A program made the translations under genes and the position numbers. The notes below the pieces were generated by a model that had not been told where the DNA came from, searched no databases, and saw only the letters and a program-made list of their open reading frames with translations. DNA of 64,000 nucleotides from Flavobacteriales bacterium (GTDB lineage Bacteria; Bacteroidota; Bacteroidia; Flavobacteriales_F; PHOS-HE28): positions 5,867-69,866 of the forward strand of contig JAHBUK010000002.1 in assembly GCA_019638115.1 (NCBI GenBank), in the 5' to 3' direction. Shown one piece after another: positions 3,841 to 22,997 of this stretch (position 1 is the stretch's first letter; each line of letters opens with the position of its first letter).

Positions 3841-3893
3841 GAAGAACCGCAGCCAAATGTGCCATCATGAGCATACATTTGGCTGCGGATAAA
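3841..3893. repeat. hairpin repeat copy 2, immediately upstream of ATPase gene
   Basis: gaagaaccgcagccaaatgtgccatcatgagcatacatttggctgcggataaaag is near-identical to copy 1. Confidence 0.75.
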
Positions 3894-3906
3894 AGACTTG
3901 CACATC

Positions 3907-5322
3907 ATGCTTATCGGCCGGGAAGAGGAGCGCGACATTCTCCTGGATGCCTTGTCATCCGGGCATTCCGAGCTGATCGCCATCTATGGAAGACGGCGCA
4001 TCGGCAAGACTTACCTGATCCGCGAAGTGTATGCCGGCAAGGTGGACTTCGAGTTCTCGGGCATGCACCGGGGCACGCTCCGGCAGCAGCTCAAGAACTT
4101 CCACCTGGTGCTGCCCGCACGGCTGCGCAAGGGTGGCCCGCCCACCGACTGGCTGGATGCCTTCGCGCTCCTGGGGCGCTACATCGACGGACTTCGAAGC
4201 AAGCGGAAGAAGGTGCTCTTCATCGATGAGTTCCCATGGCTGGACACTCACCGGAGCGGTTTCCTGGCCGCCTTCAGCCACTTCTGGAACGGCTACTGCA
4301 GCAAGCGGAAGGACATCGTGGTGGTGATCTGCGGGTCGGCGGCCAGCTACATGGTGCAGCGCGTGGTGAACAACAAGGGCGGACTGCACAACCGGCTTAC
4401 ACGGCGGATCCGACTGGCACCCTTCAACCTGCGCGAGACGGAGCAAATGCTGCAACACAGGAAGGTGCGGTTCACACGCTACGATATCATACATCTGTAC
4501 ATGGCGCTCGGCGGAGTGCCCTACTATCTGCAACTGCTGAAACGGGGCGAAAGCATGGCCCAGGCCGTCGACCGGCTGTGCTTCCAGCCGCAGGGCTTCC
4601 TGCGTGGAGAGTTCCACAACGTGTTCGCCTCGCTGTTCGACCATGCCGGCAACCACGAGGCCATCGTACGTGCATTGGCCGGTGTGCGCAAGGGCCTCAC
4701 ACGCACCGCCATCCTGCGCAAGAGCAAGGTGTCGTCTGGTGGCACCCTCACCAAGACGCTCAGTGAACTGGAGGAGTCGGGCTTCATAGAGAAGTATGTG
4801 CCCTACGATGCGAAGAAGGACCCGTTGTACCGCATAACGGATGAGTACACGCAGTTCTACCTGCGCCATGTGGAGGGCGGCAAACCGGTAAGGCGCGCCT
4901 ACTGGGCAAAGGAGATGGGTACACCAGCTTATCGGGCTTGGAGCGGATTCACCTTCGAGACCATCTGCATGAAGCATGTGGAGCAGATCAAGGCGGCGCT
5001 GGGCATCCAGGGTGTGCGCTCCACGGAGGGTAGTTGGATCGGCAAGGGCGATGAAAGCGGTGCACAGGTGGATCTGCTCATAGACCGCGACGACAACGTG
5101 ATCAACCTCTGTGAGATGAAGTTCGCGAACGGGCCCTTCACCATCGACAAGAAGTATGCGAAGGACCTGATGGCCAAGAGCGAGGCATTCCGTTCATCCA
5201 CGCGTTCGAGGAAGAGCATCTTCATCACTTTCGTAACCACCCATGGTGTGGCTCAGAACGCGTACAGCAGCCAGTTGGTGCAGAACGATGTGCGCATGGA
5301 GGCTCTTTTCGAGGAGTATTAA
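3907..5322 (+). CDS. AAA family ATPase (Arch_ATPase/ATPase_2 + DUF234-type ATP-binding protein)
   Basis: It has Walker A GRRRIGKT and Walker B VLFIDEF. The overall architecture matches the widespread 'ATP-binding protein' PF01637+PF03008 family. A TTG start at 3898 is an alternative. Confidence 0.8.
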   Translation: MLIGREEERDILLDALSSGHSELIAIYGRRRIGKTYLIREVYAGKVDFEFSGMHRGTLRQQLKNFHLVLPARLRKGGPPTDWLDAFALLGRYIDGLRSKRKKVLFIDEFPWLDTHRSGFLAAFSHFWNGYCSKRKDIVVVICGSAASYMVQRVVNNKGGLHNRLTRRIRLAPFNLRETEQMLQHRKVRFTRYDIIHLYMALGGVPYYLQLLKRGESMAQAVDRLCFQPQGFLRGEFHNVFASLFDHAGNHEAIVRALAGVRKGLTRTAILRKSKVSSGGTLTKTLSELEESGFIEKYVPYDAKKDPLYRITDEYTQFYLRHVEGGKPVRRAYWAKEMGTPAYRAWSGFTFETICMKHVEQIKAALGIQGVRSTEGSWIGKGDESGAQVDLLIDRDDNVINLCEMKFANGPFTIDKKYAKDLMAKSEAFRSSTRSRKSIFITFVTTHGVAQNAYSSQLVQNDVRMEALFEEY

Positions 5323-5368
5323 CCGCAGCCAAATGTGGCATTCAAGAGGCACATTTGGCTGCGGTTAA
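5321..5368. repeat. hairpin repeat copy 3, overlapping ATPase stop codon; lies between convergent genes
   Basis: aaccgcagccaaatgtggcattcaagaggcacatttggctgcggtt has the same stem family. It likely acts as a bidirectional terminator. Confidence 0.7.
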
Positions 5369-6274: not shown

Positions 6275-8181
6275 TCCGAAGCGGGTTGTGCCACCAACGC
6301 GCCGCGCATCAGGTGGTGGTTGAATTGTTGGATGGCGGCTTTCAAGCGTTGCTCCAGGTTGGTGGCCATGGCCGTACGTGCCTCTTCGCTCAGTGTGTCG
6401 TCGATCATGCGCTGGTCCACCACACGTTCTCCATCGAATTGCAGTTGCATGTGCGCGTTGGTGATGGAGTAGATGCCGTTGGCCGACCAGATGGCCACGC
6501 CCTGATGCGTGTTGCGCAGGGCGCTGCTGCCGAAGCTGAACACGGGTCGTTGCTGCCCTGTGAGATCGAGCACTGTGGGCAGGATGTCGATGTGCTGGGT
6601 GACCGCATCGCGCGCTTCGCCCACCAAGGGGTTGGGATGCTCCGATACTGCAACACCAGGTGCGTAGTAGAGTAGCGGCACCCAGTAGTCGATCGGCAGG
6701 TCGCCGTGTGCACCGGTGCGTTCCAGATCGGCGGTATGGTCGGCGGTGATCACGAACAAGGTGTTGGCATACCAAGGCATGGTGCGCGCCGTGGCGAAGA
6801 ACTGGCGCAGCGCATCATCGGTGTAGCGCAACGTGGGGTGGATGGCCTGTGTGCCTCCTGCGAAACGTTCGGCCTCTTCCTTGGGCAGGCGGTAGGGGTG
6901 GTGGCTGCTCAGTGTGAACACCGTGCTGAGGAAGGGTTCCTGTTCCTTGGCCAACTCTTGCGCCCAGAACTGCAGGAAGGGCCGGTCGCGGATGCCCCAG
7001 TTGCCATCGTAGTCCTCCTTACCGTTGGGGTATTCATCCATGCCCACATAGCGCTGGAAGCCCGCCGAGCGCGTGAAACCATCGAAGCCCATGGTGCCAT
7101 TGCGTCCCCCGTGGTAGAAGCTGGTGTGGTAGCCATCGGCCGCGAAAACACTGGCCAGTGAGGTGAAAGGGATGCTGGCGTAGCGGGAGGTGAGGAAGGC
7201 CTCGTCCATCAGTTCGGGCATGCTGGCGAGGATGGCCGGCACGCCGTCGATGCTGCGGCGCCCGTTGGCATAGGCCCGGGTGAAATTGAGGCTGTGGCCC
7301 ATCAGGGAATCAAGGAAGGGCATGTAGCCCTCGCCGCCCGAAAGGGTGCCGCTGTAAGCTGCGGAGAAGCTTTCCAGGATGATGACCACGACGTTGGGCT
7401 TGCGAGTGGAGGCCGTGTACTCGAAGGGCTGGTGCTCCCTGTTGGGCTGATGCACCACGGGCCACAGGCGATCGGCTTCCTCACGGGGCATGTAGATGCG
7501 CTCCTCCAAGCTGGGCTTGCCGATGCTCATGAGCATGGTGTAGGGCGTGTTGAGCACCACGGGCAGGTTGGCGGCCCCGCCATATCGCGCGCCATCCAAG
7601 GGTTGCAGCGGAATGAGCTGGGTGCCCCCCCGCGAGGCCAGTACCACCAACGCAATGGCAAGCACCCGCCAGCCGATCCGCCAGGGTAGTTTGATCGTGT
7701 CCCCCTTATCCAAGCGTCCGATGCGGCGGTAGCCCCAGGCCACAAGTACCATGGCCACTGCGAAGGCCAGCAGCAGGTACCAGTAGTCGCGCAGGAAGGC
7801 CGGGACCAGGTTGAGCATGTCGCCACCGGCCCCGATGATGTTGAAGAGGTCGCTGGTGCTGCGCTTGAGGGTGAAGGCGTAATAGCCGACATCCACGGTG
7901 TTGAGGAGAAGCCCCAAGGCGCTGGCAACCAGGAAGAAGGCCAGTTGGATGCGTTCCATGCCGGTGCCGGGGCGTGGGGAGAACAGCACCAGCAGCAGCC
8001 AAGGCAGGTACAACCATGCGATGGCGAACAGGTCGAAGCGCATGCCGCCGAGGTATGCCGTGAGCGGCACATCGGGGAAGAGTGCGGCATTGTGCCACAC
8101 GAAGAGCAGGCGCAGCAGGGTGTACAGCGCGGCCACCAGCCCCAGTCGGAGCAGCAGTACGGACAGGGGACCGACGCGCAT
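6271..8181 (-). CDS. LTA synthase family protein / sulfatase (alkaline-phosphatase superfamily, N-terminal polytopic membrane domain)
   Basis: It has about five N-terminal TM helices, then a sulfatase-like domain (VVVIILESFSAAYSG, SSHHPY, ITADHT). I chose the start at MRVGPLSVLLL. The longer ORF to 8529 looks like non-coding leader. Confidence 0.75.
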   Translation of the reverse strand: MRVGPLSVLLLRLGLVAALYTLLRLLFVWHNAALFPDVPLTAYLGGMRFDLFAIAWLYLPWLLLVLFSPRPGTGMERIQLAFFLVASALGLLLNTVDVGYYAFTLKRSTSDLFNIIGAGGDMLNLVPAFLRDYWYLLLAFAVAMVLVAWGYRRIGRLDKGDTIKLPWRIGWRVLAIALVVLASRGGTQLIPLQPLDGARYGGAANLPVVLNTPYTMLMSIGKPSLEERIYMPREEADRLWPVVHQPNREHQPFEYTASTRKPNVVVIILESFSAAYSGTLSGGEGYMPFLDSLMGHSLNFTRAYANGRRSIDGVPAILASMPELMDEAFLTSRYASIPFTSLASVFAADGYHTSFYHGGRNGTMGFDGFTRSAGFQRYVGMDEYPNGKEDYDGNWGIRDRPFLQFWAQELAKEQEPFLSTVFTLSSHHPYRLPKEEAERFAGGTQAIHPTLRYTDDALRQFFATARTMPWYANTLFVITADHTADLERTGAHGDLPIDYWVPLLYYAPGVAVSEHPNPLVGEARDAVTQHIDILPTVLDLTGQQRPVFSFGSSALRNTHQGVAIWSANGIYSITNAHMQLQFDGERVVDQRMIDDTLSEEARTAMATNLEQRLKAAIQQFNHHLMRGALVAQPASE

Positions 8182-8623: not shown

Positions 8624-10675
8624 ATGTCCCTCGAAGCCACCGAAAAACGCCAGCTCACCTACGAGCGCGGCAACCACAGCGACGCTTTCCTCATCAGCAC
8701 CTACGAGAAGCTGGTGTACCCGCGCATCATCGAAGAGAAGATGCTGAGCCTGCTGCGGCAGGGCAAGATCAGCAAGTGGTTCAGCGGCATCGGGCAGGAG
8801 GCCATCGCCGTGGGCGCCACCATGGCCCTGCAGGACGACGAGTACATCCTGCCCATGCACCGCAATCTGGGCGTATTCACCACGCGGGGCATGCCTTTCC
8901 GCAAGCTGTTCGCGCAGTGGCAGGGCAAGGCCACGGGCTACAGCAAGGGCCGCGAGCGAAGCTTCCACTTCGGCAGCCAGGAGCACAAGGTGGTGGGCAT
9001 GATCAGCCACCTTGGGCCGCAGATGGGCATCGCCGATGGCATCGCGCTGGCCCACAAGCTTAAGAAGGAGAACCGCTGCACCATCGTCTTCACCGGCGAT
9101 GGCGCCACGAGCGAGGGCGATTTCCACGAGAGCGTGAACGTGGCGGCGGTGTGGGACCTGCCCGTGCTGTTCATCATTGAGAACAACGGCTACGGACTGA
9201 GCACGCCCAGCAGCGAGCAGTTCCGCATGAAGCAGTTCACCGACAAGGCCATCGGCTATGGCATCGAAACGGTACAACTGGCGGGCAACAACATCTTGGA
9301 GGTGTACGACGCCCTGGCGTGGTGGGCCAACAGCGTGCGCGAGAACCCGCGTCCGGTGCTGATCGAATGCATGACCTTCCGCATGCGCGGTCACGAAGAG
9401 GCCAGCGGCACCAAGTACGTTCCCAAAGAGCTGTTCGAGGAGTGGGGCAGGAAGGATCCCGTGGCCAACTACGAGAATTGGCTGGTGGCGACGGGTGTGC
9501 TGACCATTGCCCAGAAGGACGAGATCCGTGCGCGGCTGAAGGACGGCATCGAAGCCGATCTGAAGGTGGCGTTCGAGGAGCCGGAACCGGTGCCGGTGGA
9601 AACCGCTGAGGTTGGGGACGTGTATGCAAATTCCGCCACTGGCCTATTGCCGCTGGCTACTGGCCCCTTGGAGGATCGGGCCAGTAGCCAGCAGCCAATA
9701 GCCATTGGCGAGTCCCGCGAGATCAGAATGATCGACGCCATCCAGGAAGGCATGCGTCAAAGCATGGAACGCCACCCGGAATTGGTGCTGATGGGCCAGG
9801 ACATCGCCGAGTACGGCGGGGCCTTCAAGATCACGGACGGTTTCGTGGAGAAGTTCGGCAAGGACCGGGTGCGCAATACGCCGCTGTGCGAGAGCGCCAT
9901 CCTGGGTGCGGCGCTGGGCCTCAGCATCAAGGGCATGAAGGCCATGATGGAGATGCAGTTCGCCGATTTCGTGAGCGAGGGTATGACCCAGATCTGCAAC
10001 AACCTGGCGAAGATCCATTACCGCTGGGGGCAGCACGCCGATGTGGTGGTGCGCATGCCCACTGGCGCCGGAGTGGGGGCGGGGCCCTTCCACAGCCAGA
10101 GCAACGAGATGTGGTTCGTGAAGACGCCCGGCCTGAAGGTGGTGTACCCCAGCAACCCCTACGACGCCAAGGGCCTGCTGATGACCGCCTTCGACGACCC
10201 GAACCCGGTGATGTTCTTCGAGCACAAAGCGATGTACCGCAGTATCAGCGGACCGGTGCCTGAGCAGCCGTACAGCATACCCTTCGGCAAGGCGCGGGTG
10301 GTGCGCGAGGGCAGCGACCTGAGCATCATCACATACGGAATGGGTGTGCATTGGGCGACGGCCGTGCAGGAGGAGACGGGCATCAGCATGGACATCATCG
10401 ACCTGCGTACGCTCGTACCCTTGGACGTGGAGACCATCCTCGCCAGCGTGAAGAAGACCGGTAAGGTGCTGCTGCTGCACGAGGACACACTGACCGCCGG
10501 TTTCGGTGGCGAGCTGGCGGCCATCATCGCAGAGCAGGCCTTCGAGTACCTGGATGCCCCGATCATGCGTGTGGCCAGCTGGGATACGCCGGTGCCCTTC
10601 GCGGTGCCGTTGGAGCAGGGTTTCCTGCCGAAGGGACGGTTGAGGGAGGCGGTGGAACGGTTGGCGGGGTATTAG
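8624..10675 (+). CDS. fused alpha/beta E1 component of a 2-oxoacid (pyruvate/branched-chain) dehydrogenase, TPP-dependent
   Basis: The N-terminal half is E1-alpha-like (TPP motif region GDGATSEGDFHESVN). The C-terminal half is E1-beta-like (LVLMGQDIAEYGGAFKIT..., FEHKAMYR). This fusion is common in Bacteroidota. Confidence 0.85.
   Translation: MSLEATEKRQLTYERGNHSDAFLISTYEKLVYPRIIEEKMLSLLRQGKISKWFSGIGQEAIAVGATMALQDDEYILPMHRNLGVFTTRGMPFRKLFAQWQGKATGYSKGRERSFHFGSQEHKVVGMISHLGPQMGIADGIALAHKLKKENRCTIVFTGDGATSEGDFHESVNVAAVWDLPVLFIIENNGYGLSTPSSEQFRMKQFTDKAIGYGIETVQLAGNNILEVYDALAWWANSVRENPRPVLIECMTFRMRGHEEASGTKYVPKELFEEWGRKDPVANYENWLVATGVLTIAQKDEIRARLKDGIEADLKVAFEEPEPVPVETAEVGDVYANSATGLLPLATGPLEDRASSQQPIAIGESREIRMIDAIQEGMRQSMERHPELVLMGQDIAEYGGAFKITDGFVEKFGKDRVRNTPLCESAILGAALGLSIKGMKAMMEMQFADFVSEGMTQICNNLAKIHYRWGQHADVVVRMPTGAGVGAGPFHSQSNEMWFVKTPGLKVVYPSNPYDAKGLLMTAFDDPNPVMFFEHKAMYRSISGPVPEQPYSIPFGKARVVREGSDLSIITYGMGVHWATAVQEETGISMDIIDLRTLVPLDVETILASVKKTGKVLLLHEDTLTAGFGGELAAIIAEQAFEYLDAPIMRVASWDTPVPFAVPLEQGFLPKGRLREAVERLAGY
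9635..9708. repeat. imperfect ~30-bp inverted repeat (hairpin) located in-frame in the E1 alpha-beta linker
   Basis: ccactggcctattgccgctggctactggcc ... ggccagtagccagcagccaatagccattgg encodes the linker TGLLPLATGPLEDRASSQQPIAIG. Confidence 0.65.
10601..10675. repeat. direct repeat copy 1 (native 3' end of E1 gene)
   Basis: The 75 bp gcggtgccgttggagcagggtttcctgccgaagggacggttgagggaggcggtggaacggttggcggggtattag is repeated about 90% identical at 11225-11299. Confidence 0.8.
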
Positions 10676-10691
10676 GTCGCTGATCGGCATC

Positions 10692-10716
10692 CCACTGCCG
10701 GTGATCGTGGCACCGG
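10692..10716 (+). terminator. hairpin just downstream of E1 stop (9-bp perfect stem ctgccggtg/caccggcag), no T-run
   Basis: It was seen directly. The function is inferred. Confidence 0.3.
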
Positions 10717-10850
10717 CAGCGTCGACTAGGCTGACCGACCGATGGTGATGGACGCGATCAACCTCCTACCACCACATTTTCGGCCGGGACCTTTTCCATC
10801 GAATGCTTCCGTGATTTGTGACACGCCCTTCCCATGAATAGTTTCGCTCC

Positions 10851-11189
10851 ATGCCTTTGGACGTGGACTCTCTGATAGAACGCGGTCTGACCCTGAAAAG
10901 GGAAGGCGGCAGTGGACGTCAGCTCAGTGAATTCCTCGAGCGTGAAGGCGCTGATGAAGGAGCCCGCCGCTTCATCCTGCGGCAGATCGACAAGCGGTTG
11001 CTGAAGGAGCACCAAGCCAAGGGTTCGGGGATGTACCAAAGCATGAAGGGATTCCTGGGCTTCGGGTTGATGGCGGGCGGAGCGCTACTGGGGTGGTTCC
11101 TATGGGCGGGGATCGACGGCTGGAACGTAATCAGCACAGTGCCCTTCATCATGTTCGGAGCAGGTCTGTGGGTGCTGAATTCGAAGTAG
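10851..11189 (+). CDS. hypothetical small membrane protein (soluble N-terminal ~65 aa + two C-terminal TM helices)
   Basis: The ORF has the hydrophobic stretches GFLGFGLMAGGALLGWFLWAGI and VISTVPFIMFGAGLWVL. It lies inside the segment bounded by the E1 3'-end duplication. Confidence 0.5.
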   Translation: MPLDVDSLIERGLTLKREGGSGRQLSEFLEREGADEGARRFILRQIDKRLLKEHQAKGSGMYQSMKGFLGFGLMAGGALLGWFLWAGIDGWNVISTVPFIMFGAGLWVLNSK

Positions 11190-11224
11190 GGGAGATTCTC
11201 TAGGGTATCTGCAGTCGTGCTTAG

Positions 11225-11299
11225 CGGTGCCGTTGGAGTAGGGGTTCCTGGCGAAGGGAAGGTTGAGGGAGGGGGTGGGACGGTTGGCGGGGTATTGAA
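11225..11299. repeat. direct repeat copy 2 (diverged duplicate of E1 gene 3' end)
   Basis: gcggtgccgttggagtaggggttcctggcgaagggaaggttgagggagggggtgggacggttggcggggtattga has about 8 mismatches versus copy 1. Confidence 0.8.
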
Positions 11300-11324: not shown

Positions 11325-12044
11325 ATGAAGAACGGCGCAGTCCTTTTATTGGATGTCCTAGGATGGAAGGGCATATGGCTCCGAAGGTCTGATGCTATTG
11401 AAGCAATGCTGCAACTGGTTGCTAGTTGTCGGGATGCAATATCTTCTTTTTCGGGTGATAAGGTAATGGGGGATAGGTTTTCCGGATTAAGGGTTGAAGT
11501 GCTTACAATATCAGATACTATTGCAATTACTTGCCATGGTGAATTAGATGAATCTGTCGAACTACTTTCTTATGTGGGAAACTATTTAATCATTAATGGA
11601 ATAGGGTGTCATTTGCCGCTGCGAGGTGCGTTAAGTTATGGTCTTTTTAAGTCTTCGAGTAACGTGTTGTTGGGACCTGCGGTAGATGAGGTAGCATCTT
11701 GGTATGAAAATTCAGAATGGATTGGGGGATTCTTAACACCTTCAGCTTCCTTGAAAGTGAATATCGATAATTTTGTTTATCCTCATCTGTTGGTTCGCCA
11801 TGATGTTCCAACGAAAAATGGCACGTACAAAAATGGATTGTGCTTGAACTGGCCTATTGTTTGGGCATCAGAAGAGAATGCTGTAGAGGCTAGGGATAGA
11901 TTCATTTCTCATATCCTGAATTTAGGTCCATCTATGCCCGAAGTATATTCAAAGCTTAGTAATACGATTGATTTTTATGATAAAAATTCCACTCCGGATA
12001 GGGAGAATTTTTCCGAGCTAAAGGACCGGTTTGAAGATAGTTAG
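11325..12044 (+). CDS. standalone class III nucleotidyl cyclase-like (adenylate/guanylate cyclase - GGDEF palm fold) protein, AT-rich foreign gene
   Basis: The coding region is about 40% GC, against a background near 64%. Its motifs align to the class III AC catalytic domain. LLLDVLGWKG matches F.DIVGFT with metal Asp 1. FSGDKVMG matches FVGDAIM with metal Asp 2. GIGCHLPLRGALSYGLF matches GIH.G.AVVGLFG. LGPAVDEVASWYE matches IGPSVNIAARLQE, but with Asn to Asp and Arg to Trp substitutions. Confidence 0.55.
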   Translation: MKNGAVLLLDVLGWKGIWLRRSDAIEAMLQLVASCRDAISSFSGDKVMGDRFSGLRVEVLTISDTIAITCHGELDESVELLSYVGNYLIINGIGCHLPLRGALSYGLFKSSSNVLLGPAVDEVASWYENSEWIGGFLTPSASLKVNIDNFVYPHLLVRHDVPTKNGTYKNGLCLNWPIVWASEENAVEARDRFISHILNLGPSMPEVYSKLSNTIDFYDKNSTPDRENFSELKDRFEDS

Positions 12045-13864: not shown

Positions 13865-14030
13865 GAGAGCCTGTTTAGTATCTCTTCAAACTCGTCCCCC
13901 GGTCTCTTTTCCGCCCATGCTTCGCCGAAAAATGATCCCGTAGGCACCGCTACGCGATGATTTTTCGGTTACGCCTGTACGAAAAACAGCCTCGGGGTCC
14001 ATCGTTCAAGAGATCCTAAACAGGCTCTGA
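13865..14030. repeat. nested inverted repeats in a 520-bp intergenic region (outer tgagagcctgtttag.atctctt.aaac arms ~110 bp apart; inner ccgaaaaatgatc/gatgatttttcgg)
   Basis: It was seen directly. It is a possible MITE remnant or a structured RNA. Confidence 0.4.
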
Positions 14031-14325
14031 ACGATGGTCTCCGTTTCCGACGCGGTCCGGTCATTGTGTTGCGCTTGCGCTGAGAGCATGCGATGGTAAG
14101 CTGCGGGAAGGTTCGATCGGTATCTGAGCGACATGACCTCGAAGCAACAGCCATGGGTGCAATGTGCTGAGGAGGCTTCGTGCGGCGGATTTCGGGAACC
14201 TGACCTCGTTGGAGTAACACGTGTTTCCGTTCGTTGGTCGGCGGTCCGGCCTGTGCGTATTGCCACTCGATCGTGAGCCTTGTTCCATAAGCCTACGTTC
14301 AGCACGCTTAGGTTTGCGCGCTCCC

Positions 14326-15303
14326 ATGCCCCAGCGTACCCATTTCCCTGGCATCTTGCTCGCCATGCTCATCGGTCTGGGCGGGTACTTCGGATCGGCG
14401 TACACTCCCGCTTGGCTCAACGGCATACTTCTGGCGCTGCTGTTGGGCATGGTGGTGGGCAACCTGCTGAAACTACCAGCGGTGGTCCAACCTGGTATCG
14501 GCTTCACCAGCAGCAAGCTCCTTGAGCTTTCGGTACTCTTCCTGGCCTTCAGTATCAACTACGGGCACATCACGCGGCTTGGCGCATCGTCCTTCAGCAT
14601 CGTGCTGATCATGGTGCTGGGCATGGTGTTCATCACCTACCACCTGGCCCGGCAGGTGCGCTGCCCCGGCAGCACGGGCTGGCTGGTGGGCTTCGGAACG
14701 GCCATCTGTGGCAGCAGCGCCATCGCCGCACTGGCGCCCCGCGTGGCGAAGAACAAGGATGATGTGGGCATCGCCATGGCCGTGGTTAACCTCTTCGGTA
14801 GCGTGGGCATGGTCGTGCTGCCGCTGGTGCTCGTGCGCTTCGACCTCAGCGATACCCAGCTCGGCATCCTCATCGGAGGTACGCTGCATAGCGTGGGCAA
14901 CGTGGTGGGCGCAGGCTACACCATCAGCGATGGCGTGGGCGAAGCGGCCACCACCATCAAGTTGGCGCGGGTGGCCATGCTCAGCCCGGCCTTGATCCTC
15001 TTCAACCTGCTGGTGGATCGTGATGAGTCGCAAGGCTGGCGCCAGCAGCTGCGTTTGCCTTGGTACCTCTGGGGCTTCATCGGCATCACGCTCCTGACCT
15101 CGGTCGTCACCCTGCCCGCAGAGCTGCTCCGCGCCGTGGACGTGGCGGGCAAGCTGGCGCTCACCATCGCCTTGGCGGCCATCGGCCTCAAGGTGAGCTT
15201 CGGCGAGCTGCTGGCCAGCGGCCGCAAGGGCTTGGGCTTCGGACTGATCGTGTTCGCCGTGCAGTTCGCACTGGTGGCGGGCTTGATGGTGCTGGTGGGG
15301 TAG
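14326..15303 (+). CDS. yeiH: YeiH/UPF0324 family putative sulfate exporter membrane protein
   Basis: It is polytopic, with the typical motifs GTAICGSSAIAA and LIGGTLHSVGNVVGAGY. Confidence 0.8.
   Translation: MPQRTHFPGILLAMLIGLGGYFGSAYTPAWLNGILLALLLGMVVGNLLKLPAVVQPGIGFTSSKLLELSVLFLAFSINYGHITRLGASSFSIVLIMVLGMVFITYHLARQVRCPGSTGWLVGFGTAICGSSAIAALAPRVAKNKDDVGIAMAVVNLFGSVGMVVLPLVLVRFDLSDTQLGILIGGTLHSVGNVVGAGYTISDGVGEAATTIKLARVAMLSPALILFNLLVDRDESQGWRQQLRLPWYLWGFIGITLLTSVVTLPAELLRAVDVAGKLALTIALAAIGLKVSFGELLASGRKGLGFGLIVFAVQFALVAGLMVLVG
15166..15303. repeat. direct repeat copy 1 (native 3' end of yeiH)
   Basis: The 138 bp atcgccttggcggccatcggcctcaaggtgagcttcggcgagctgctggccagcggccgcaagggcttgggcttcgg... 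is repeated at 16180-16316. Confidence 0.85.
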
Positions 15304-15528
15304 GGTGCAGGGCATCCGTTATCCGGGAGTGGTTCCCCGCCGCAGCGCCAAGGATGGTGAGTGGGAGCGGATCGCCCCCTGCGAACCTGTCTTTGCCCAA
15401 GGCGGACAGGTACGGGGTACGAGCAAGCCCCCCCATCCATCGCAGCAAGCCCTTCTGGAGCGACTTGACGAACTACAAGCGACCACCGCTTACCGACAGC
15501 TAATTGCCGCCGATCGCTCCCGCCACCC

Positions 15529-16071
15529 TCACTGCCCAAAGTGGTAGCCCACGGCCACGGTAAAAGACCAGGGCCGCTGCAGGATCTCCACGTCGGGGCG
15601 CTTGTCCAGGGCATCCAGGTCATCCTCGTATTCCGTGGGGCGCTGCGGGAAGATCACCTGCACGCTCCAGTAGCGCCGGGGCTGGCGAAGGCCATGGATC
15701 TCCAGCCCTATGCCGAAAGAGGTGCCGTAGTAGAGTTGGTTCTCCTCCGGCAGGCCCCGAACGGCGATGGCCGCATTGTAGCCGTACATGCCGGTGATCA
15801 GGGGACACACCCGCGAATTGGGCGATAAACGCAGGTTCATGCCCACGTTGTAGCCCAAGCCTGCCAGGGCATAGCCGCCTCCGGCAAAGAGCGCCACCGG
15901 CTGCCACGGACGCACCTGGAACTGCCCGCCCAAGCCACCGTAGGGTTGGCCGAAACCAATGCCAAAAACCCAAGCGGACGGCACGGCCTAGTAGCCGCTG
16001 GTGGCTTCCGCCAGCTCCTGGGCATGCAGCAGGCCGGGTGCCATGGCGAGGGTGAGGAGGAACTGGCGCAT
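15529..16071 (-). pseudogene. outer-membrane/secreted-like protein gene with in-frame TAG between signal peptide and mature domain
   Basis: The minus strand reads MRQFLLTLAMAPGLLHAQELAEATSGY-TAG-AVPSAWVFGIGFGQPYGGLGG... in one frame. It is intact only if it starts at an internal GTG, which would leave no signal peptide. Confidence 0.4.
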
Positions 16072-16179
16072 GCCTCGAATGTAGGTGCGTGAAGCGGCAT
16101 TTACAAGCGCTCCGACCGTCACCATGGACCGCTCCTCAACGCACCCGCCCTGCAGGGAGTGTAGGGCGCGCAACGGCCC

Positions 16180-16316
16180 ATCGCCTTGGCGGCCATCGGC
16201 CTCAAGGTGAGCTTCGGCGAGCTGCTGGCCAGCGGCCGCAAGGGCTTGGGCTTCGGGCTGATCGTGTTCGCCGTGCAATTCGCGCTGGTGGCGGTGCTGC
16301 TGGTGGCGCTGGGGTG
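16180..16316. repeat. direct repeat copy 2 (diverged duplicate of yeiH 3' end, reading frame preserved)
   Basis: The copy has about 10 substitutions, mostly synonymous or conservative in the yeiH frame, and ends in TGA instead of TAG. Confidence 0.85.
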
Positions 16317-16382
16317 AGCTTCGATCCGTAGGATGGCTTTTCTTTGAAAGGCGCAGCATCCCTAAAGCTGGGCAAGCAACAC

Positions 16383-17285
16383 ATGGTACGATCGATCTTG
16401 AGGGGCTTGTTGCTCATGCTCGTGCTACTCGTAGGCTTTGCGTTCTGGTTGTCTCCGCGTTTAGGCGGACTGATCGACCTGGGCAAGGAGTCCATCGAAA
16501 CCACCATCACTACCCTGAGCTTCGACTCACTCGGTACCGATGGCTACGAGCTCAATTATCCGGACCTGAGTGGTGAGCCTCATTTGGTGGAACTGCGTGA
16601 AACCTATCAGTTGGATACGCTGATCGGCTCGGCATCAAGCTCGCTTGAACAAGTGCTGGCCGTGCAGAGCTGGGTGCAAAGCAGATGGGAACACGATGGC
16701 GACAATTCAGCTGGTACATCGGATGCGATCGCTATTCTGCGGGCGGCAGAGCAAGGGCAACGTTTCCGCTGTGTGGAGTACAGCGTGGTCACCTCAGCCT
16801 GCTTGGCATCGCTGGGCTTCCGGGTCCGTGGTTTGGGCTTGATGACACGTGACATAGCGGAAGTACGTTCCGGCGGTGGTCATGCGGTCAATGAGGTCTA
16901 TCTGCCTGATCTGAAGCGTTGGGCATTTCTCGACCCACAGTACAATGTGATGGTGTTGCGCGATGGTGCTCCGCTGAATGCAGTACAGTTTCAGCATGCC
17001 ATTGCACATGGTATTCCGGTGGAACTTGTAGGCCCCAGCGGAGCCATCAGTACAGAAGATTACCTGAGCTGGGTGGGACCGTACCTCTACTACTTCTACG
17101 TTTCCCTGGATCGACAGTCCATCAGCATTTGGGACAGGGTGGTCGGCAACAAGAAGCAGCTGACGCTTTACCCGATCGGAGCGGATCGCCCTGCTACTTT
17201 CCAAGGCTTGATACGCTGGAACAACACCCATTACACCCACGCCGTACGGGATCTGTATCCCGTGGTGGAAGACCAAATTCGCTAA
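16383..17285 (+). CDS. transglutaminase-like cysteine peptidase superfamily protein
   Basis: It has a Cys-His-Asp arrangement (FRCVEYSVV; GGGHAVNEVY; AFLDPQ) and an N-terminal TM/signal MVRSILRGLLLMLVLLVGFAFWL. Confidence 0.65.
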   Translation: MVRSILRGLLLMLVLLVGFAFWLSPRLGGLIDLGKESIETTITTLSFDSLGTDGYELNYPDLSGEPHLVELRETYQLDTLIGSASSSLEQVLAVQSWVQSRWEHDGDNSAGTSDAIAILRAAEQGQRFRCVEYSVVTSACLASLGFRVRGLGLMTRDIAEVRSGGGHAVNEVYLPDLKRWAFLDPQYNVMVLRDGAPLNAVQFQHAIAHGIPVELVGPSGAISTEDYLSWVGPYLYYFYVSLDRQSISIWDRVVGNKKQLTLYPIGADRPATFQGLIRWNNTHYTHAVRDLYPVVEDQIR

Positions 17286-17665
17286 GCGCAGCCCTTCACC
17301 GCCACGCCGCTGATCTCCACGTTCACCCCGCGCGGCAGGCCCTTCACCGCATAGGCTTCGCGTGCTGGTGGTACCTCGCCGAAGTAGCTGCCGTACACCT
17401 CGTTCACCGCCGCGTAGAGGCTCATGTCGCTAAGCAGGATCGTGATCTTCACCAGGTCGCTGTAGTCCATGCCGGCGGCCTTCAGCAGCTTGCCGAGGTT
17501 CTCCATCACCTGCCGCGTTTCGGTTGCGATGTCGCCGGTGTGCAGATTACCCGCTTCGTCGAGCGCGATCTGGCCGCTGAGGTAGAGCGTGCCATTGGTG
17601 AGGATGGCCGGCGTGTAGGGTGCGATTGGCTTTGCCGCGTTGGGCGGGAAGATGGCTTGTTTCAT
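17282..17665 (-). CDS. ridA: RidA/YjgF family reactive intermediate deaminase
   Basis: It reads MKQAIFPPNAAKPIAPYTPAIL...GQIALDEAGNL...PARE..AVKGLPRGVNVEI. The long upstream extension in the ORF track is non-coding repeat. Confidence 0.8.
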   Translation of the reverse strand: MKQAIFPPNAAKPIAPYTPAILTNGTLYLSGQIALDEAGNLHTGDIATETRQVMENLGKLLKAAGMDYSDLVKITILLSDMSLYAAVNEVYGSYFGEVPPAREAYAVKGLPRGVNVEISGVAVKGCA

Positions 17666-17710
17666 GGGTGCGAAGGTGGGGAAAGGGGCGAGGGGCGGAA
17701 TGGGCATAAA

Positions 17711-17882
17711 TGAAGAATGAAAAATGTAGAAGGAAAAATGATGAATGAAAGATGCCGGGACCAAGGTGGTGAGCTGAACGGGTCGGTGGATGGATGTCAG
17801 ACTTGGCTTGCGATGGACGGCGCCAGCTTCGCGGGTAGCAGTAGTCACAGTTCTACATTTTTCATTCTACATTTTTCATTGC
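17711..17882. repeat. composite palindromic element (gaatgaaaaatgtagaa arms / ttctacatttttcattc x2 inverted, ~95-bp GC-rich core)
   Basis: It was seen directly between ridA and surE. It has the same tandem-arm/core/inverted-arm architecture as the GTGGCGA elements. Confidence 0.65.
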
Positions 17883-17894
17883 AAGACACGCTCG

Positions 17895-18701
17895 ATGCCC
17901 ACGGATACCTTTGCCCCCGCAATGGAACAACTGCCCCTCATCCTGGTCACCAACGACGATGGCATCTTCGCCCCCGGTATCCGCACCTTGGCGGAAGAGA
18001 TGAAAGCCTACGGCCGCGTGATGGTGGTGGCGCCGGACAAGCCGCAGAGCGCCATGGGCCACGCGATCACCATCCACAGCTTCCTGCGCCTGCAAAGCGT
18101 GGACCTGATGGACGGCGTGGAGGCCTGGAGCTGCAGCGGCACGCCCGTGGATTGTGTGAAGCTCGCCATCTACAAACTCCTCGGTGGCAACAAGCCCGAC
18201 CTGTTGGTGAGCGGCGTGAACCACGGTGCCAACATCAGCATCAACGTACTGTACAGCGGCACCATGAGCGCGGCGGTGGAAGGGGCCATGGAAGGCATCC
18301 CCAGCATCGGCTTCAGCCTGATGGACCACGCCATCGAGGCGGACTTCAGCCAGGTGCGACCCGTGATCCGCAGTGTGGTGGGCAACACCCTGAAGCACGG
18401 CATGGCACCCGGCACCTGCCTGAACGTGAACGTGCCGCGCAACGATGGGATGCCGCTCGCCGGCATGCGCGTGTGCCGTCAGGCCAAGGCCAACTGGGAG
18501 GACGAGTTCGAGACGCGGCTCGATCCCGGCAACAAGGAGTACTACTGGCTGCGCGGCGAGTTCAAGAGCGAGGACCAGGGCCACGACACCGACGTGTATG
18601 CCGTGAACAACCGCTATGTGAGCATCGTGCCCACGCAGTACGACATGACCGCCCACCACAGCATTGCCACCCTCAACACCTGGGACCATGCGCTGGGATA
18701 G
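17895..18701 (+). CDS. surE: 5'/3'-nucleotidase SurE
   Basis: It has the LILVTNDDGIFAPGI N-terminus, which is the SurE signature. Confidence 0.85.
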   Translation: MPTDTFAPAMEQLPLILVTNDDGIFAPGIRTLAEEMKAYGRVMVVAPDKPQSAMGHAITIHSFLRLQSVDLMDGVEAWSCSGTPVDCVKLAIYKLLGGNKPDLLVSGVNHGANISINVLYSGTMSAAVEGAMEGIPSIGFSLMDHAIEADFSQVRPVIRSVVGNTLKHGMAPGTCLNVNVPRNDGMPLAGMRVCRQAKANWEDEFETRLDPGNKEYYWLRGEFKSEDQGHDTDVYAVNNRYVSIVPTQYDMTAHHSIATLNTWDHALG

Positions 18702-18987
18702 TCTTATCGTGGGCCTCGTGCTCGGCCTCATCACCCCGGTGCTGGGCTTCTTCATCTACGGGGCCATCCACGTGAACATCATCCGTCCGCACCTGGACCT
18801 GCCGTACTTCATCCACGACCTGTTCCTGGGCACGCGGGTCTACCAAGCGCCCATCCTCAGCCTGTCGCTGCTGGCCAACCTGCCGCTCTTCTTCCTGCTG
18901 GACCGCTATGTGCTCTACAAGGCCATGCGCGGGGTGATCACAGCGACCTTCATCTACGGCGTGGTCATCGTGGTGCTTTGGATGTGA
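18688..18987 (+). CDS. hypothetical small membrane protein
   Basis: It reads MRWDSLIVGLVLGLITPVLGFFIYGAI..., has three hydrophobic segments, and overlaps the surE stop by 14 nt. Confidence 0.45.
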   Translation: MRWDSLIVGLVLGLITPVLGFFIYGAIHVNIIRPHLDLPYFIHDLFLGTRVYQAPILSLSLLANLPLFFLLDRYVLYKAMRGVITATFIYGVVIVVLWM

Positions 18988-18992
18988 AGGCC

Positions 18993-20219
18993 ATGGGCAA
19001 GCGCATCTACATGATAGCCGGTGAAGCCAGTGGCGACCTCCACGGGGGGAACCTGGTGCGCGAGCTAGTGAAGATGAGTGGCGAGTGGCGAGTGGCGAGT
19101 GAAATGCCCCTTCCAAGGGATGCTGATCCCGGGGCATTACACTCGCCACTCGCCACTCATCACTCGCCACTCATTACTCCTCACGCGCCACTCCGCATCC
19201 GAGCCTGGGGGGGCGATCGCATGGCCGCTGCCGGCGCCGAAGTGGTGAAGCATTACCGCGAGCTGGCCTTCATGGGCTTCACGCAGGTGATCATGAACCT
19301 GCGCACCATCCTCCGCAACATCGAGCAGTGCAAGGAGGACATCGAAGCCTTCAAGCCCGATGCGCTGGTGCTGATCGACTACCCCGGCTTCAACCTGCGC
19401 ATCGCCGAATGGGCGCACGCCAAGGGCATCCCCGTGCACTACTACATCAGTCCGCAGGTGTGGGCCTGGAAGAAGGGTAGGGTGCACACCATCAAAAAAG
19501 TTGTGGACCACATGTACGTGGTGTTGCCCTTCGAGCAGGCCTGGTATGCGCAGTACGGCATGGCGGTGGACTTCGTTGGGCACCCGCTGCTGGATGCGAT
19601 CGAGCACGAAGGCAAGACCCCGCTCCAGCCCCTTCCCGGCGATGATGGCCGTCCGGTGGTGGCCCTGCTGCCCGGCAGCCGTAGGCAGGAGATCGCGCGC
19701 ATGATGAAGCTGATGCGTGCCACCGCGCGCCATTTCCCGGACCACCGCTTCGTGCTGGCCGCCGCGCCCTCCATACCGGACGAGGTCTACGCAGCCCAGC
19801 CCGGCGATCCGCCCGTTACCGTGGTGAAGGGCCGCACCTACGACGTGTTGCGCCACGCCCGCGCCGCGCTGGTCACCAGCGGCACCGCCACCTTGGAGAC
19901 GGCGCTCTTCGGGGTGCCTGAGGTGGTGTGCTACAGCGGCAGCGCCATAAACGTGTGGCTGGCCCGCCGTCTGGTGAAGGTGAAGTACATCAGCCTGGTG
20001 AACCTGATCATGGACCGCGAGGTGGTACGCGAACTGATACAGAGCGAGCTCACCGAGCAGAGCCTGCGTACCGAACTCGCCGCATTGCTGGCGGATGGTC
20101 CCAGGCGCAACACCATGCTCGCCGACCTGGCGGAATTGGGGCGCGTGTTGGGCGGCCCCGGAGCTTCGCGCAAGGTTGCATCGGGCGTGTGGAAAAGTCT
20201 GTTCAGCGCTTCACGCTGA
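18993..20219 (+). CDS. lpxB: lipid-A-disaccharide synthase LpxB carrying a ~37-codon in-frame repeat-element insertion
   Basis: It has the MGKRIYMIAGEASGDLHGGNLV N-terminus and the ...GGDRMAAAGAEVV...ISPQVWAWKKGRV LpxB motifs. Residues WRVASEMPLPRDADPGALHSPLATHHSPLITPHAP are encoded by the palindromic element. Confidence 0.85.
   Translation: MGKRIYMIAGEASGDLHGGNLVRELVKMSGEWRVASEMPLPRDADPGALHSPLATHHSPLITPHAPLRIRAWGGDRMAAAGAEVVKHYRELAFMGFTQVIMNLRTILRNIEQCKEDIEAFKPDALVLIDYPGFNLRIAEWAHAKGIPVHYYISPQVWAWKKGRVHTIKKVVDHMYVVLPFEQAWYAQYGMAVDFVGHPLLDAIEHEGKTPLQPLPGDDGRPVVALLPGSRRQEIARMMKLMRATARHFPDHRFVLAAAPSIPDEVYAAQPGDPPVTVVKGRTYDVLRHARAALVTSGTATLETALFGVPEVVCYSGSAINVWLARRLVKVKYISLVNLIMDREVVRELIQSELTEQSLRTELAALLADGPRRNTMLADLAELGRVLGGPGASRKVASGVWKSLFSASR
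19075..19185. repeat. composite palindromic element (GTGGCGA heptamer family) inserted in-frame inside lpxB
   Basis: gagtggcgagtggcgagtggcgagtg-aaatgccccttccaagggatgctgatcccggggcatt-acactcgccactcgccactcatcactcgccactc is 111 bp, a multiple of 3. Confidence 0.8.
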
Positions 20220-20256
20220 GCCCGCCACCGCCAGATACTTTTGGGCGCCCACCAGA

Positions 20257-21450
20257 ATGCGCCCCTTCTTCCTATTACTTGGCGTGATCGCCATTGGTGC
20301 ACACGCGCAGGAACGCATGGTGCGCATCGGCCTGCTGCACGACCGCACCGTGAAACAAGTGGTGGTGATGAGCGCCAAGGGCAACAGCACGGTGCTGGCC
20401 GATGGTGTCCGGGTGGGCGAGATACAGACCAACGACGGCCTGAAGATCGAGGTGGGGCCCGGCGGCCTGGTGGCCAAGTCGCTCACCCTTTCCGTGGAAG
20501 CCAAAGAGCGGATTGAAGTGGTGCCGCGCTTGGCCGATGGTGGCTTCCGGATGCGGGCACCCGAGACCAAGGTGGCCGAGCGCACCTACCCCGGCAGCTT
20601 GCTGGTACTGCGCAGTGGCACTAGCTTGAAGCTGCGCAACCACGTGATGCTGGAGAACTACGTGGCCGGAGTGGTACAGGCCGAAGCAGGCAATCATCAC
20701 CACATCGAGTACTACAAGCTGCAGAGCGTGAGCTGCCGTACCTATGCGCTGAGCAATCTGCGCAAGCACTTGCCAGACGGCTTCGAGCTTTGCGATGGGG
20801 TACACTGCCAGGTGTTCCATGGTAGGGTGCGCAACGACAGCATCCGCATGGCGGTGGATGCCACGCACAGCTTGGTGTTGGTGGACCCCGAGATCCGCTT
20901 GATCCACGCCACCTTCCACAGCAACTGCGGCGGCGAGACCGTGAACGCCGAGGATGTATGGAGCAAGAGCGAGCCCTACCTGCGCGCCACGGCCGATACC
21001 TTCTGCCTCGGTGCTCCGCAATCCAATTGGGAGAAGACCATCCCGCGCCGCGAATGGGTGGCCTACCTGAAACGGCGCTATGGTATACAGGCGGACAACG
21101 AAGCACTGTTGGAGCCGCTGCTCAACTACGAACCGCAGTGCCGTGATCTTTACCTGGGTAACATGTGGCCATTGGTTCCGCTGAAGAACGTGCGCGAGGA
21201 CTTCAAGCTGCGCTCCACTTATTTCAGTGTGCGCAGCGAAGGCGAGAACGTGGTGCTGAAAGGCCGCGGTTTCGGGCACGGTGTGGGGCTCTGCCAGGAA
21301 GGCTCCATGCGCATGGCCCGCGCGGGACGCTCCTACACCGACATCCTGCACCACTACTACACGGATGTCCACCTGGTGGATCTCCAGACCCTGGATTTCT
21401 TCCGCGAAGAACGGCCGGCCAACGGTCCTTCCGCGCCCACCAGCCGCTAA
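20257..21450 (+). CDS. SpoIID/LytB domain-containing protein
   Basis: It has the signal MRPFFLLLGVIAIGAHAQ. It has the SpoIID-type motifs (LENYVAGVV.AE, TYALSN, HSNCGGET, GRGFGHGVGLCQEGSMRMA). Confidence 0.8.
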   Translation: MRPFFLLLGVIAIGAHAQERMVRIGLLHDRTVKQVVVMSAKGNSTVLADGVRVGEIQTNDGLKIEVGPGGLVAKSLTLSVEAKERIEVVPRLADGGFRMRAPETKVAERTYPGSLLVLRSGTSLKLRNHVMLENYVAGVVQAEAGNHHHIEYYKLQSVSCRTYALSNLRKHLPDGFELCDGVHCQVFHGRVRNDSIRMAVDATHSLVLVDPEIRLIHATFHSNCGGETVNAEDVWSKSEPYLRATADTFCLGAPQSNWEKTIPRREWVAYLKRRYGIQADNEALLEPLLNYEPQCRDLYLGNMWPLVPLKNVREDFKLRSTYFSVRSEGENVVLKGRGFGHGVGLCQEGSMRMARAGRSYTDILHHYYTDVHLVDLQTLDFFREERPANGPSAPTSR

Positions 21451-21469
21451 GCCCGGCTACCTTCGGCCC

Positions 21470-22699
21470 ATGGCTCAAGCCCGCATCGTCGTAAACGACA
21501 CCCACCAACGCATCCGTCAGGGCCATCCCTGGGTGTTCGCCACGCAGGTGGTGAAGGAACAAGGCAGCTACCAGCCCGGTGATGTGGTGCAGGTGGTTGA
21601 TGTACGCCACGGTCCACTGGGGCAGGGCTACATCAACCCGGCATCCATGATCCGGGTGCGCATGCTCACCAACGACATGGCCGATCGGGTGAGCGCGGCT
21701 TTCATTACCGCACGGGTGGAACGGGCGGTGCGCATGCGCGAGCAGGTGTGGTTGCAGCGCGATGCGCAGGGGCGCGCAAGCGGCAGTTGCCGCCTCATCT
21801 TCGGCGAAGCCGACCAACTGCCCGGCCTGGTGGTGGACCGTTTCCAGGATGTGAACACCGGTACCGTGGTGCTCGTGCTCCAGTTCCTCACCCTGGGCAT
21901 GGAGCGCTGGCGCAGTGTGGTGGTGAAGGCGCTGGAGGACCTCGTGAAGCCTGATGGCCTGGTGTTGCGCAACGATGTGCCCATCCGCGAGAAGGAAGGT
22001 CTGGCCCAGGAGAAGGGCTTCGCTTCGGCCGCCTGCAACACCAAGATGATCATCGCCGAGCGTTCCGGTGCGGGCGAGCCGGTGCTGATGCACGCCGACC
22101 TGATGGAGGGGCAGAAGACCGGCCATTTCCTGGACCAGGTGTTGAACCACGGCTCCATGGCCTTGGTGAGCCGTGGCAAACGGGTGCTGGATTGCTTTAC
22201 GCACACCGGTGGTTTCGCCCTGCATGCGGCACGGCACGGTGCGGCCGAAGTGCTGGGTTTGGACATCAGTGCGGATGCCGTTGCCCTGGCCACGCGCAAC
22301 GCCGAATTGAACGGCTTCACAAAGGTTCGCTTCCAAGCGGCCAACGTGTTCGATCACCTTACCGAGGCCAGCCGCACGGGCCAACAGTGGGATGTGATCG
22401 TGCTGGACCCACCGGCTTTCGCCAAGAGCAAGGGAGCCTTGGAGAACGCCTATCGCGGCTACAAGGAGATCAACCTGCGGGCATTGAAGTGCCTGCGCCC
22501 CGGTGGCGTGCTGGTTACTTGCAGTTGCTCGCAGCACATGGTGCCGGAGCTTTTCCGCCAAATGGTGGAAGAGGCTGCCTGGGATGCCGGAGTGCGCCTG
22601 CGTGAATTGTACAACGGATCACAACCTCCGGATCATCCGGTGCTGTGGGGTGCGCCTGAAACGCACTACCTGAAGTGCTTGATGCTGGAAGTGCTTTAG
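21470..22699 (+). CDS. rlmI: class I SAM-dependent 23S rRNA (cytosine-C5) methyltransferase, RlmI/RlmK-like (PUA + MTase)
   Basis: It has the MTase motifs VLDCFTHTGGFALHAA and DVIVLDPPAFAKSK, with an N-terminal PUA-like region. Confidence 0.75.
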   Translation: MAQARIVVNDTHQRIRQGHPWVFATQVVKEQGSYQPGDVVQVVDVRHGPLGQGYINPASMIRVRMLTNDMADRVSAAFITARVERAVRMREQVWLQRDAQGRASGSCRLIFGEADQLPGLVVDRFQDVNTGTVVLVLQFLTLGMERWRSVVVKALEDLVKPDGLVLRNDVPIREKEGLAQEKGFASAACNTKMIIAERSGAGEPVLMHADLMEGQKTGHFLDQVLNHGSMALVSRGKRVLDCFTHTGGFALHAARHGAAEVLGLDISADAVALATRNAELNGFTKVRFQAANVFDHLTEASRTGQQWDVIVLDPPAFAKSKGALENAYRGYKEINLRALKCLRPGGVLVTCSCSQHMVPELFRQMVEEAAWDAGVRLRELYNGSQPPDHPVLWGAPETHYLKCLMLEVL

Positions 22700-22997
22700 G
22701 CGCCCTGAAGCTCGTGCCCGAAAAGGGCTTCCGGCTCGTGCCGGCGACGTGGCAGCAAGGCCACCAGAAACCCCAGCGGCCCCAAGGGCAGACCGATCAT
22801 GTACCAGCTCATCAGGTCGTAGCCGCGTTGCCCTGCGATGAAGGCGGTGATCAACGCGAAAACAAAGGGGAGGACCAGTAATGCGATCATTTCCAGTGTG
22901 TTTCTGGATGATGAAGCTAATGGCACCTGTAGCGATCGATCCTCGGGGTAGGTAGAAAGGTGTTCTCGTGCGATGAACTACCTTTTCCGACAGACGA

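Follow-up and report, generated by a model that had tools for sequence, protein, structure and literature searches.

C-terminal displacement is known at rearrangement hotspot (Rhs) loci, for which the single crossover of a circle has been proposed (Jackson et al. 2009, PMC2935791). For the effector/immunity arrays of type VI secretion systems (T6SS), homology-facilitated illegitimate recombination (HFIR) has been proposed (Kirchberger et al. 2017, PMC5361080); HFIR is defined by one junction lying in homology and the other forming without it (PMC3240628). In the icd gene of Escherichia coli, the prophage e14 leaves behind a 163-bp icd' fragment (PMC6379469). Here we describe a duplicated and displaced 3' end of yeiH, a gene of a putative sulfate exporter family, in a Flavobacteriales bacterium. 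The sequence analysed, referred to below as the window, is a stretch of 64,000 nucleotides from contig JAHBUK010000002.1 (assembly GCA_019638115.1; positions 5,867 to 69,866 of the forward strand).

The prophage e14 is a 15-kb element with its own integrase and excisionase. Cis-mobilisable elements (CIMEs), as found at the 3' end of fda in Streptococcus thermophilus, are flanked by att sites; they derive from, and depend on, the integrases of integrative and conjugative elements (ICEs) with defined att cores. Classical HFIR events usually delete recipient DNA and do not duplicate it. The yeiH islet of the window, a short insert followed by a second copy of the end of yeiH, is best read as a recombination scar, left by a homology-anchored import with one illegitimate junction (HFIR-like), and not as a mobile element; we place the probability of this reading at roughly 0.7. 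A dedicated integrating element is unlikely.

A chimeric yeiH gene and its displaced native end

The yeiH gene (14326-15303, plus strand) is intact, encodes 325 aa and matches Pfam PF03601 with an E-value of 3.5e-67 over profile positions 1-301 of 304. Its 3' end is repeated downstream: 15164-15301 corresponds to 16178-16315 over 138 nt, with 92.8% identity, 10 substitutions and no indels (E 7.6e-53 when the window was compared to itself by BLAST), and the gap between the two copies is 876 nt. The first 79 nt of copy 1, designated H1 (15164-15242, plus strand), are found unchanged at 16178-16256, and all 10 differences are located in the last 59 nt (P=1.3e-4 for random placement). The reading frame is kept in both copies, and a stop codon occupies the equal position in each (TAG in the first copy, TGA in the second). 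Of the single-base changes, three are synonymous; the amino-acid changes between the copies are four (G/V, M/L, L/A and V/L), all of them among glycine or hydrophobic residues. A preliminary description of this DNA, according to which the yeiH 3' end recurs 876 bp downstream with frame-preserving and mostly conservative substitutions, was therefore accurate on both counts. Copy 2 (16178-16317, plus strand) consists of 46 codons and the TGA stop, lacks a gene body and carries two private substitutions. Its homology to yeiH begins abruptly at 16178, and 16177/16178 is a non-homologous junction.

The origin of each segment was assessed by comparison with two groups of relatives, represented by L048 and L049 on the one hand and by L051 and L052, which belong to a donor-like clade, on the other. 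The 79 nt common to both copies match L048/L049 at 73-74 of 79 positions, versus 64-67 of 79 for L051/L052. The last 24 nt of copy 2, TGA included, are identical to L048/L049 at 23 positions and to L051/L052 at 15, and the match to L048/L049 takes in both the TGA and the GC that follows it. The last 24 nt of copy 1, TAG included, match L048/L049 at 16 positions, L051 at 22 and L052 at all 24. The yeiH body together with H1 is 92-95% identical to L048, and for the distal part of copy 1 there is a match of 71 nt to L052 with 91.5% identity; overall, the YeiH proteins of the L051/L052 clade are 73-75% identical to that of the window. Because the segment identities split in this manner between the two groups, the yeiH gene of the window is a chimera of a resident body and a foreign tail, with its breakpoint within 15243-15280, and copy 2 is the resident lineage's own displaced yeiH end. 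Both body and H1 belong to the resident type; the distal part of copy 1 (15243-15303, plus strand) changes at the breakpoint to the foreign type, which holds from 15280 onward and supplies the last 7-20 codons or so and the TAG. The second copy had been held to derive from a once-functional, incoming yeiH end: once functional it was, but it is the distal part of copy 1, and not copy 2, that is foreign. Nor does this foreign end point to carriage by an incoming element, as had also been proposed, for this is how yeiH normally ends on the chromosomes of another clade.

In that clade VAGLMVLVG is the usual C-terminus of YeiH, identical in P0090 and P0096 and present as near variants in P0094, P0095 and P0099. 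The foreign tail occurs there without any duplication, followed by an empty-like gap in L051 and by a different cassette in L052. The 105-nt gap between yeiH and ridA in L051 contains, 32 nt past the yeiH stop and on the minus strand, a relic of the last 13-19 codons or so of the gene that fills the insert of the window (38 nt at 89% identity to window 15524-15561, E 1e-7 in a search of the loci retrieved by that stage). This relic indicates that the gene, termed here the barrel gene, was once located directly downstream of yeiH in the foreign-tail clade, as it is in window 15243-16177.

The barrel gene (15529-16071, minus strand) is the only gene of the insert. Its N-terminus resembles a signal peptide, and its frame is interrupted once, by a TAG (15988-15990) at codon 28, directly after the signal peptide, whereas its homologues, hypothetical proteins of Bacteroidota, are intact at about 180 aa. 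An AlphaFold (AF2) model built on 39 sequences predicted an outer-membrane beta-barrel of eight strands, with a mean predicted local distance difference score (pLDDT) of 93.4. The best matches in the PDB (by Foldseek) were barrels of the OmpA, OprF and OmpW type; those to tOmpA, the N-terminal barrel of OprF and the transmembrane (TM) domain of OmpA had E-values of 1.5e-4 to 1.3e-3 and TM-scores of 0.5-0.63. Since a Pfam search of the family, lenient thresholds included, gave no match, its membership in a sequence family is undefined. The product is accordingly modelled as a small outer-membrane fold like OmpW or the TM domain of OmpA, and its gene as inactivated; an inactivated, outer-membrane-protein-like gene on the minus strand is also what the preliminary description had placed between the copies. 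Readthrough or recoding of the TAG was rejected as an explanation because both yeiH and the E1 dehydrogenase gene of the window (see below) terminate at TAG.

The closest homologues of the barrel protein (62-65% identical) are encoded next to the gene of an FG-GAP protein of the type IX secretion system (T9SS), and therefore do not identify the donor. None of the 80 metagenomic loci with barrel homologues had the gene beside yeiH or ridA; two of them had it near surE, in a different orientation. The spacer that separates the yeiH stop from the barrel stop (15304-15528, 225 nt) resembles, at its ends, the 32-nt spacer of L051 (by inspection of L051 8975-9095), and its middle part of about 190 nt matched none of the loci fetched and contained no convincing open reading frame (ORF). 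The region upstream of the barrel gene (16072-16177) terminates at the 16177/16178 junction, which is covered by an independent contig, L045. Consensus scans of the islet for promoters and terminators found nothing.

The yeiH/ridA junction in relatives and scars at other genes

Across 44 genomic loci that hold a YeiH relative, yeiH, convergent ridA, surE and lpxB form the conserved gene order. Among the loci fetched, the stops of yeiH and ridA are 5-45 nt apart in at least 10 relatives, and others carry unrelated inserts of 0.45-3.4 kb at the same junction: a gene for a 118-aa secreted protein, two lipocalin-like lipoproteins, a 287-aa protein, an asparagine synthase together with another gene, or a 936-aa gene. 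In L027, a transglutaminase-like gene 72% identical to its homologue in the window directly follows yeiH. As some relatives are nearly gapless at this position and others hold unrelated inserts, the yeiH/ridA junction serves as a hotspot for cassettes within this clade of Flavobacteriales.

Comparison with genomes lacking the insertion, which the preliminary description had suggested as a check, revealed an empty site in L048, L049 and L050. In L048 and L049 just 4 nt separate the stops of yeiH and ridA. The DNA of L048 is 95-96% identical to the window over 13988-15301 and 17286-24355 (94.8% in yeiH up to 15301), and the YeiH proteins of L049 and L050 are 93% identical to that of the window. 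Relative to these closest relatives the window has 1,984 extra nt, made up of the barrel-gene segment, copy 2 and a transglutaminase-like gene. Neither the YeiH nor the transglutaminase-like protein of the window had an exact match in the contig index.

The transglutaminase-like gene (16383-17285, plus strand; Pfam PF01841) is a second cassette. The GC content at its third codon positions (GC3) is 0.63, versus 0.77-0.88 in neighbouring genes, and the cassette occupies exactly the 4-nt yeiH/ridA spacer of the closest relatives. Its flanks read TGAGC on the left (16315-16319) and TAAGC(GC) on the right (17283-17291). On the right side of the hotspot lies the conserved ridA gene (17282-17665, minus strand; PF01042), convergent with yeiH. 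The ridA stop of the relatives (TCA on the plus strand) reads GCA here, which makes ridA two codons longer (ending in KGCA), and the new stop overlaps the TAA of the cassette.

A similar scar is present at the E1 dehydrogenase gene of the window (8624-10675). In this islet (10597-11296, plus strand) the last 77 nt of the gene, 10597-10673, recur at 11220-11296 with 91% identity and no perfect core. Between the copies there is a 112-aa ORF (10851-11189), and after them a low-GC gene; the independent contig L053 contains this arrangement in full. The last 26 residues encoded by copy 1 are identical to those of the closest relatives, and the flank downstream matches L054; copy 2 has three variants and a TGA stop in common with the L054 lineage, as well as private changes that include a stop. 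To judge by these sequences, copy 1 and the downstream flank look resident, and copy 2 looks like a leftover of donor DNA.

The low-GC gene (11325-12044) directly after the displaced E1 fragment encodes 239 aa and is clearly foreign, with 38-43% GC against about 60% for the genome. Pfam searches at lenient thresholds found nothing in this gene or in the 112-aa ORF, and PADLOC found nothing in the four ORFs of the islet (the low-GC gene and the ORFs of 112, 74/75 and 129 aa). For the latter three, no annotation was obtainable.

A third case was found at ridA in L012, in which a 35-nt copy of the ridA 3' end (4008-4042 and 6913-6947; compare L008 7452-7486) lies between the 118-aa cassette and the 936-aa gene. 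L012 and L008 share 97.6% identity as far as a junction that falls within the last 13 codons of ridA; past the 936-aa gene, L012 has a complete ridA whose C-terminus differs and whose identity to L008 is only 87%. The L012 ridA locus is thus a resolved case in which imported DNA was anchored by homology on one side and joined illegitimately, within the last codons of the gene, on the other. The footprint at E1 had been pointed out in the preliminary description as a sign that the process recurs, a view that the E1 locus and this additional case uphold. The three scars differ in length (138 nt at yeiH, 77 nt at E1 and 35 nt at the L012 ridA), and no motif common to them was seen by eye.

Proposed course of events and competing explanations

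The ancestral state would have been that kept by the closest relatives, with yeiH, 4 nt and the stop of the convergent ridA. In the window lineage, the transglutaminase-like cassette sits beside the native yeiH end. A chromosomal segment from another Flavobacteriales lineage, consisting of its yeiH end, a short spacer and the barrel gene, would also have come in. On the left it would have been joined inside the yeiH homology (15243-15280), leaving yeiH intact with a foreign tail. On the right it would have been attached, at 16177/16178 and with no homology involved, to position -138 of the resident gene, with the consequence that the resident end survives as a 138-nt downstream fragment. Such a course would need no recombinase encoded by the insert, and the nonsense mutation in the barrel gene would have been acquired afterwards. 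The two junctions are of the kinds that define HFIR: the left lies within aligned yeiH sequence, the right is abrupt, and hence one is homologous and the other is not.

Several observations weigh against this reading. The double presence of the resident 79 nt is not accounted for by simple one-step HFIR from a distant donor alone; a duplication step, a conspecific intermediate or a conversion is needed. The perfect 79-nt direct repeat, together with a gene end borne by the insert, is the exact product of site-specific integration at a 3' end. An intact barrel gene beside a yeiH with the foreign tail was found in no genome; L052 has another cassette in this position, and a further member of the donor-like clade (P0099, L135/L136) has an empty site. 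Finally, the genome is an uncultured, metagenome-assembled one, in which a ComEC homologue is the sole sign related to DNA uptake. This ComEC/Rec2-type competence gene (22998-25130; PF03772, E 7e-59) lies 6 kb from the islet and is compatible with DNA uptake, but is no proof of natural transformation.

As the 79-nt duplication is unlike classical HFIR, an extra step or a conspecific intermediate is required. One possible explanation is that the event took place in two steps, by way of conspecific strains with separate cassettes, each step being topologically simple. A second is a single step in which host DNA was duplicated, for example by template switching. A third would be a circle, integrated by a single crossover, with later homogenisation of the block. 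The chimeric make-up of yeiH, the native origin of copy 2, the empty sites, the hotspot and the recurring footprint are seen in the sequences; what we say of the enzymology, and of one step as opposed to two via conspecific strains, is deduced.

The third of these possibilities is a Campbell-type single crossover, within the 138-nt homology, by a circle carrying a yeiH 3' fragment and the barrel gene; Jackson et al. put forward a model of this type for the tips of Rhs genes (PMC2935791). It would yield exactly the direct repeats around the insert and the displaced native tip that are seen here. On this model, however, the initial 79 nt of copy 2 should derive from the donor, whereas they are identical to those of copy 1 and resident-like, as their match to L048/L049 in preference to the donor-like clade shows; a donor that was already mosaic, or later gene conversion, is therefore needed. 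We consider it an unlikely route and, in any case, a sub-variant of the HFIR-like explanation and not a separate category.

A site-specific origin was also considered. The islet would in this case be the remnant of, or a miniature version of, an element such as e14 or phage 21 in icd, or a CIME-like one, with the integrase acting in trans or since deleted, an attP containing a mimic of the yeiH end, and the 79-nt repeat as the att core. The perfect repeat at both ends, the preservation of yeiH by an end on the insert side with displacement of the native one, the empty sites in L048, L049 and L050, and the comparable 163-bp icd' fragment of e14 (PMC6379469) all agree with such an origin. The 876-nt insert, however, encodes the barrel gene alone, and neither an integrase nor a transposase was detected in it, nor by Pfam among the GC3-filtered genes between 415 and 28367, one doubtful and unscanned 124-aa call (20211-20585) excluded. 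A tRNA scan found none in the window, Rfam (E up to 0.1) gave no match of note, no pair of inverted repeats bounds 15302-16177, and no phage or plasmid similarity was found. The machinery signatures expected of the incoming, recurrently integrating element of the preliminary description were thus not encountered. Moreover, the supposed mimic is an ordinary chromosomal yeiH end of the other clade, where it is accompanied by other cassettes or by none and is not duplicated, and the scars at E1 (77 nt) and at the L012 ridA (35 nt) differ in length and by eye have no motif in common, that at E1 being without a perfect core. With a replacement end that is another clade's ordinary allele, and no recombinase or common core found, the site-specific explanation is disfavoured, and we rate it slightly below the Campbell-type route.

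More improbable still is a dedicated cassette-insertion system, perhaps with a trans-acting recombinase, which would target the last codons of conserved genes by means of short gene-end mimics on cassettes of less than 1 kb. If it did exist, the yeiH, E1 and ridA scars would be att-like footprints, and single genes would be stacked at 3' ends on the chromosome in an integron-like manner.

An assembly artefact, named in the preliminary description as the finding that would overturn its view, would mean that two strain variants of the yeiH 3' flank had been stitched together in tandem. The source is a metagenome-assembled genome, and graph paths could be mis-joined at the identical 79-nt block. 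The Logan contig L045 (SRR29353002, and a second sample too), an independent k-mer assembly of public reads, is nevertheless 100% identical to 15213-16207. It spans the insert, the junction of the foreign tail with the insert, that of the insert with copy 2 (16177/16178), and the TAG. L045 ends 30 nt into the shared block on either side, as it must in a graph with k=31, and linkage across the block is unreadable from k-mer contigs. Given these edges, any linear molecule that bears the insert has the assembled order, with H1 on both sides and an exit into the end of copy 2 and the transglutaminase-like gene; the sole alternative to that order is a free 1,014-bp circle. At the k-mer level an artefact is accordingly not borne out, and we regard it as very improbable.

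A purely local origin, by tandem duplication of the yeiH end and divergence or by a transposon-like insertion with a long target duplication and no foreign end, agrees with the identical first 79 nt, as expected for a recent duplication, but is scarcely credible given that none of the 10 differences lies outside the last 59 nt, that they match the alleles of two lineages base for base, alternative stops included, and that no terminal inverted repeats bound the insert. Insertion of an insertion sequence, a transposon or a miniature inverted-repeat transposable element (MITE) was rejected, there being no terminal inverted repeats and a 138-nt duplication with lineage-specific differences.

Other repeats were observed elsewhere in the window. 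A 52-nt palindromic element (CCGCAGCCAAATGTG…CACATTTGGCTGCGG) is present in three copies (3625-3676, 3841-3892 and 5317-5368) that are 77-92% identical and bracket an ATPase gene (3898-5322; PF01637/AAA). These may be repeats of the repetitive extragenic palindromic (REP) or terminator-like kind, or the boundaries of another small insert. Nested inverted repeats occupy 13866-14028, between an OmpA gene and yeiH, where 24-nt arms, 92% complementary and 115 nt apart, enclose a 48-nt arm pair. Rfam found nothing in them; the end of L053 at 13895, inside these repeats, suggests a MITE-like repetition elsewhere in the genome. A GAGTGGCGAGTG-rich 41-nt repeat (83% identical) is located at 930-970 and 19076-19116, near the 5' ends of an M1-peptidase-like gene and of lpxB, and its lpxB copy falls within a low-complexity stretch at the N-terminus.

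Relation to described systems and significance

Among the systems outlined above, the C-terminal displacements of Rhs, contact-dependent growth inhibition (CDI) and T6SS loci resemble the islet in that the gene body is kept, a new 3' end of lateral origin is inserted along with a downstream gene, and the old end is left downstream as a silent fragment repeating the core. Also similar are the close match of the new tip to tips on the same gene family elsewhere and the absence of a dedicated integrase. In contrast to those loci, the gene affected here is of the housekeeping type, a transporter (with E1 dehydrogenase and ridA in the parallel cases), and not a polymorphic toxin; the tip consists of some 7-20 codons of an orthologous allele and brings no new function; and the passenger is a barrel gene instead of an immunity gene, with a single displaced tip and no array. 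The islet works like the C-terminal displacement family, and is not a member of the toxin systems.

With e14 and phage 21 in icd, the islet has in common a 3' end supplied by the insert that keeps the target gene intact, a native end persisting as a pseudogene fragment (163 bp for icd, 138 nt here), and substitutions that are mostly conservative. It differs from e14 in its 876-nt insert with one unrelated gene and no recombinase, and in its replacement end, which is the chromosomal allele of another lineage. CIMEs are likewise small, integrase-less inserts that sit between direct repeats where a conserved gene ends, and to which further inserts may be added in succession, but no ICE, integrase or shared core of the kind on which they depend was found here.

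HFIR, as described in transformable bacteria and in E. coli conjugation (PMC3240628), shares with the islet a single homologous junction and foreign DNA beside a conserved anchor gene, with no element functions, a pattern that the comparison of L012 with L008 shows directly. The difference is that HFIR was defined there by experiment, and the event at yeiH is read from sequence alone. The yeiH islet is a scar of a known kind, in a new and well-documented instance at housekeeping genes and not at toxin loci, and reveals no new mechanism.

Its value lies in being a compact natural case for which both parental types can be identified, in the form of close relatives with empty sites and a donor-like clade. 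It shows the stacking of single-gene cassettes at a hotspot between convergent genes in uncultured Flavobacteriales, by which a conserved gene was silently made chimeric. Such fragments of displaced gene ends might offer a simple marker, applicable across whole genomes, for counting one-sided (illegitimate) recombination events in natural populations.

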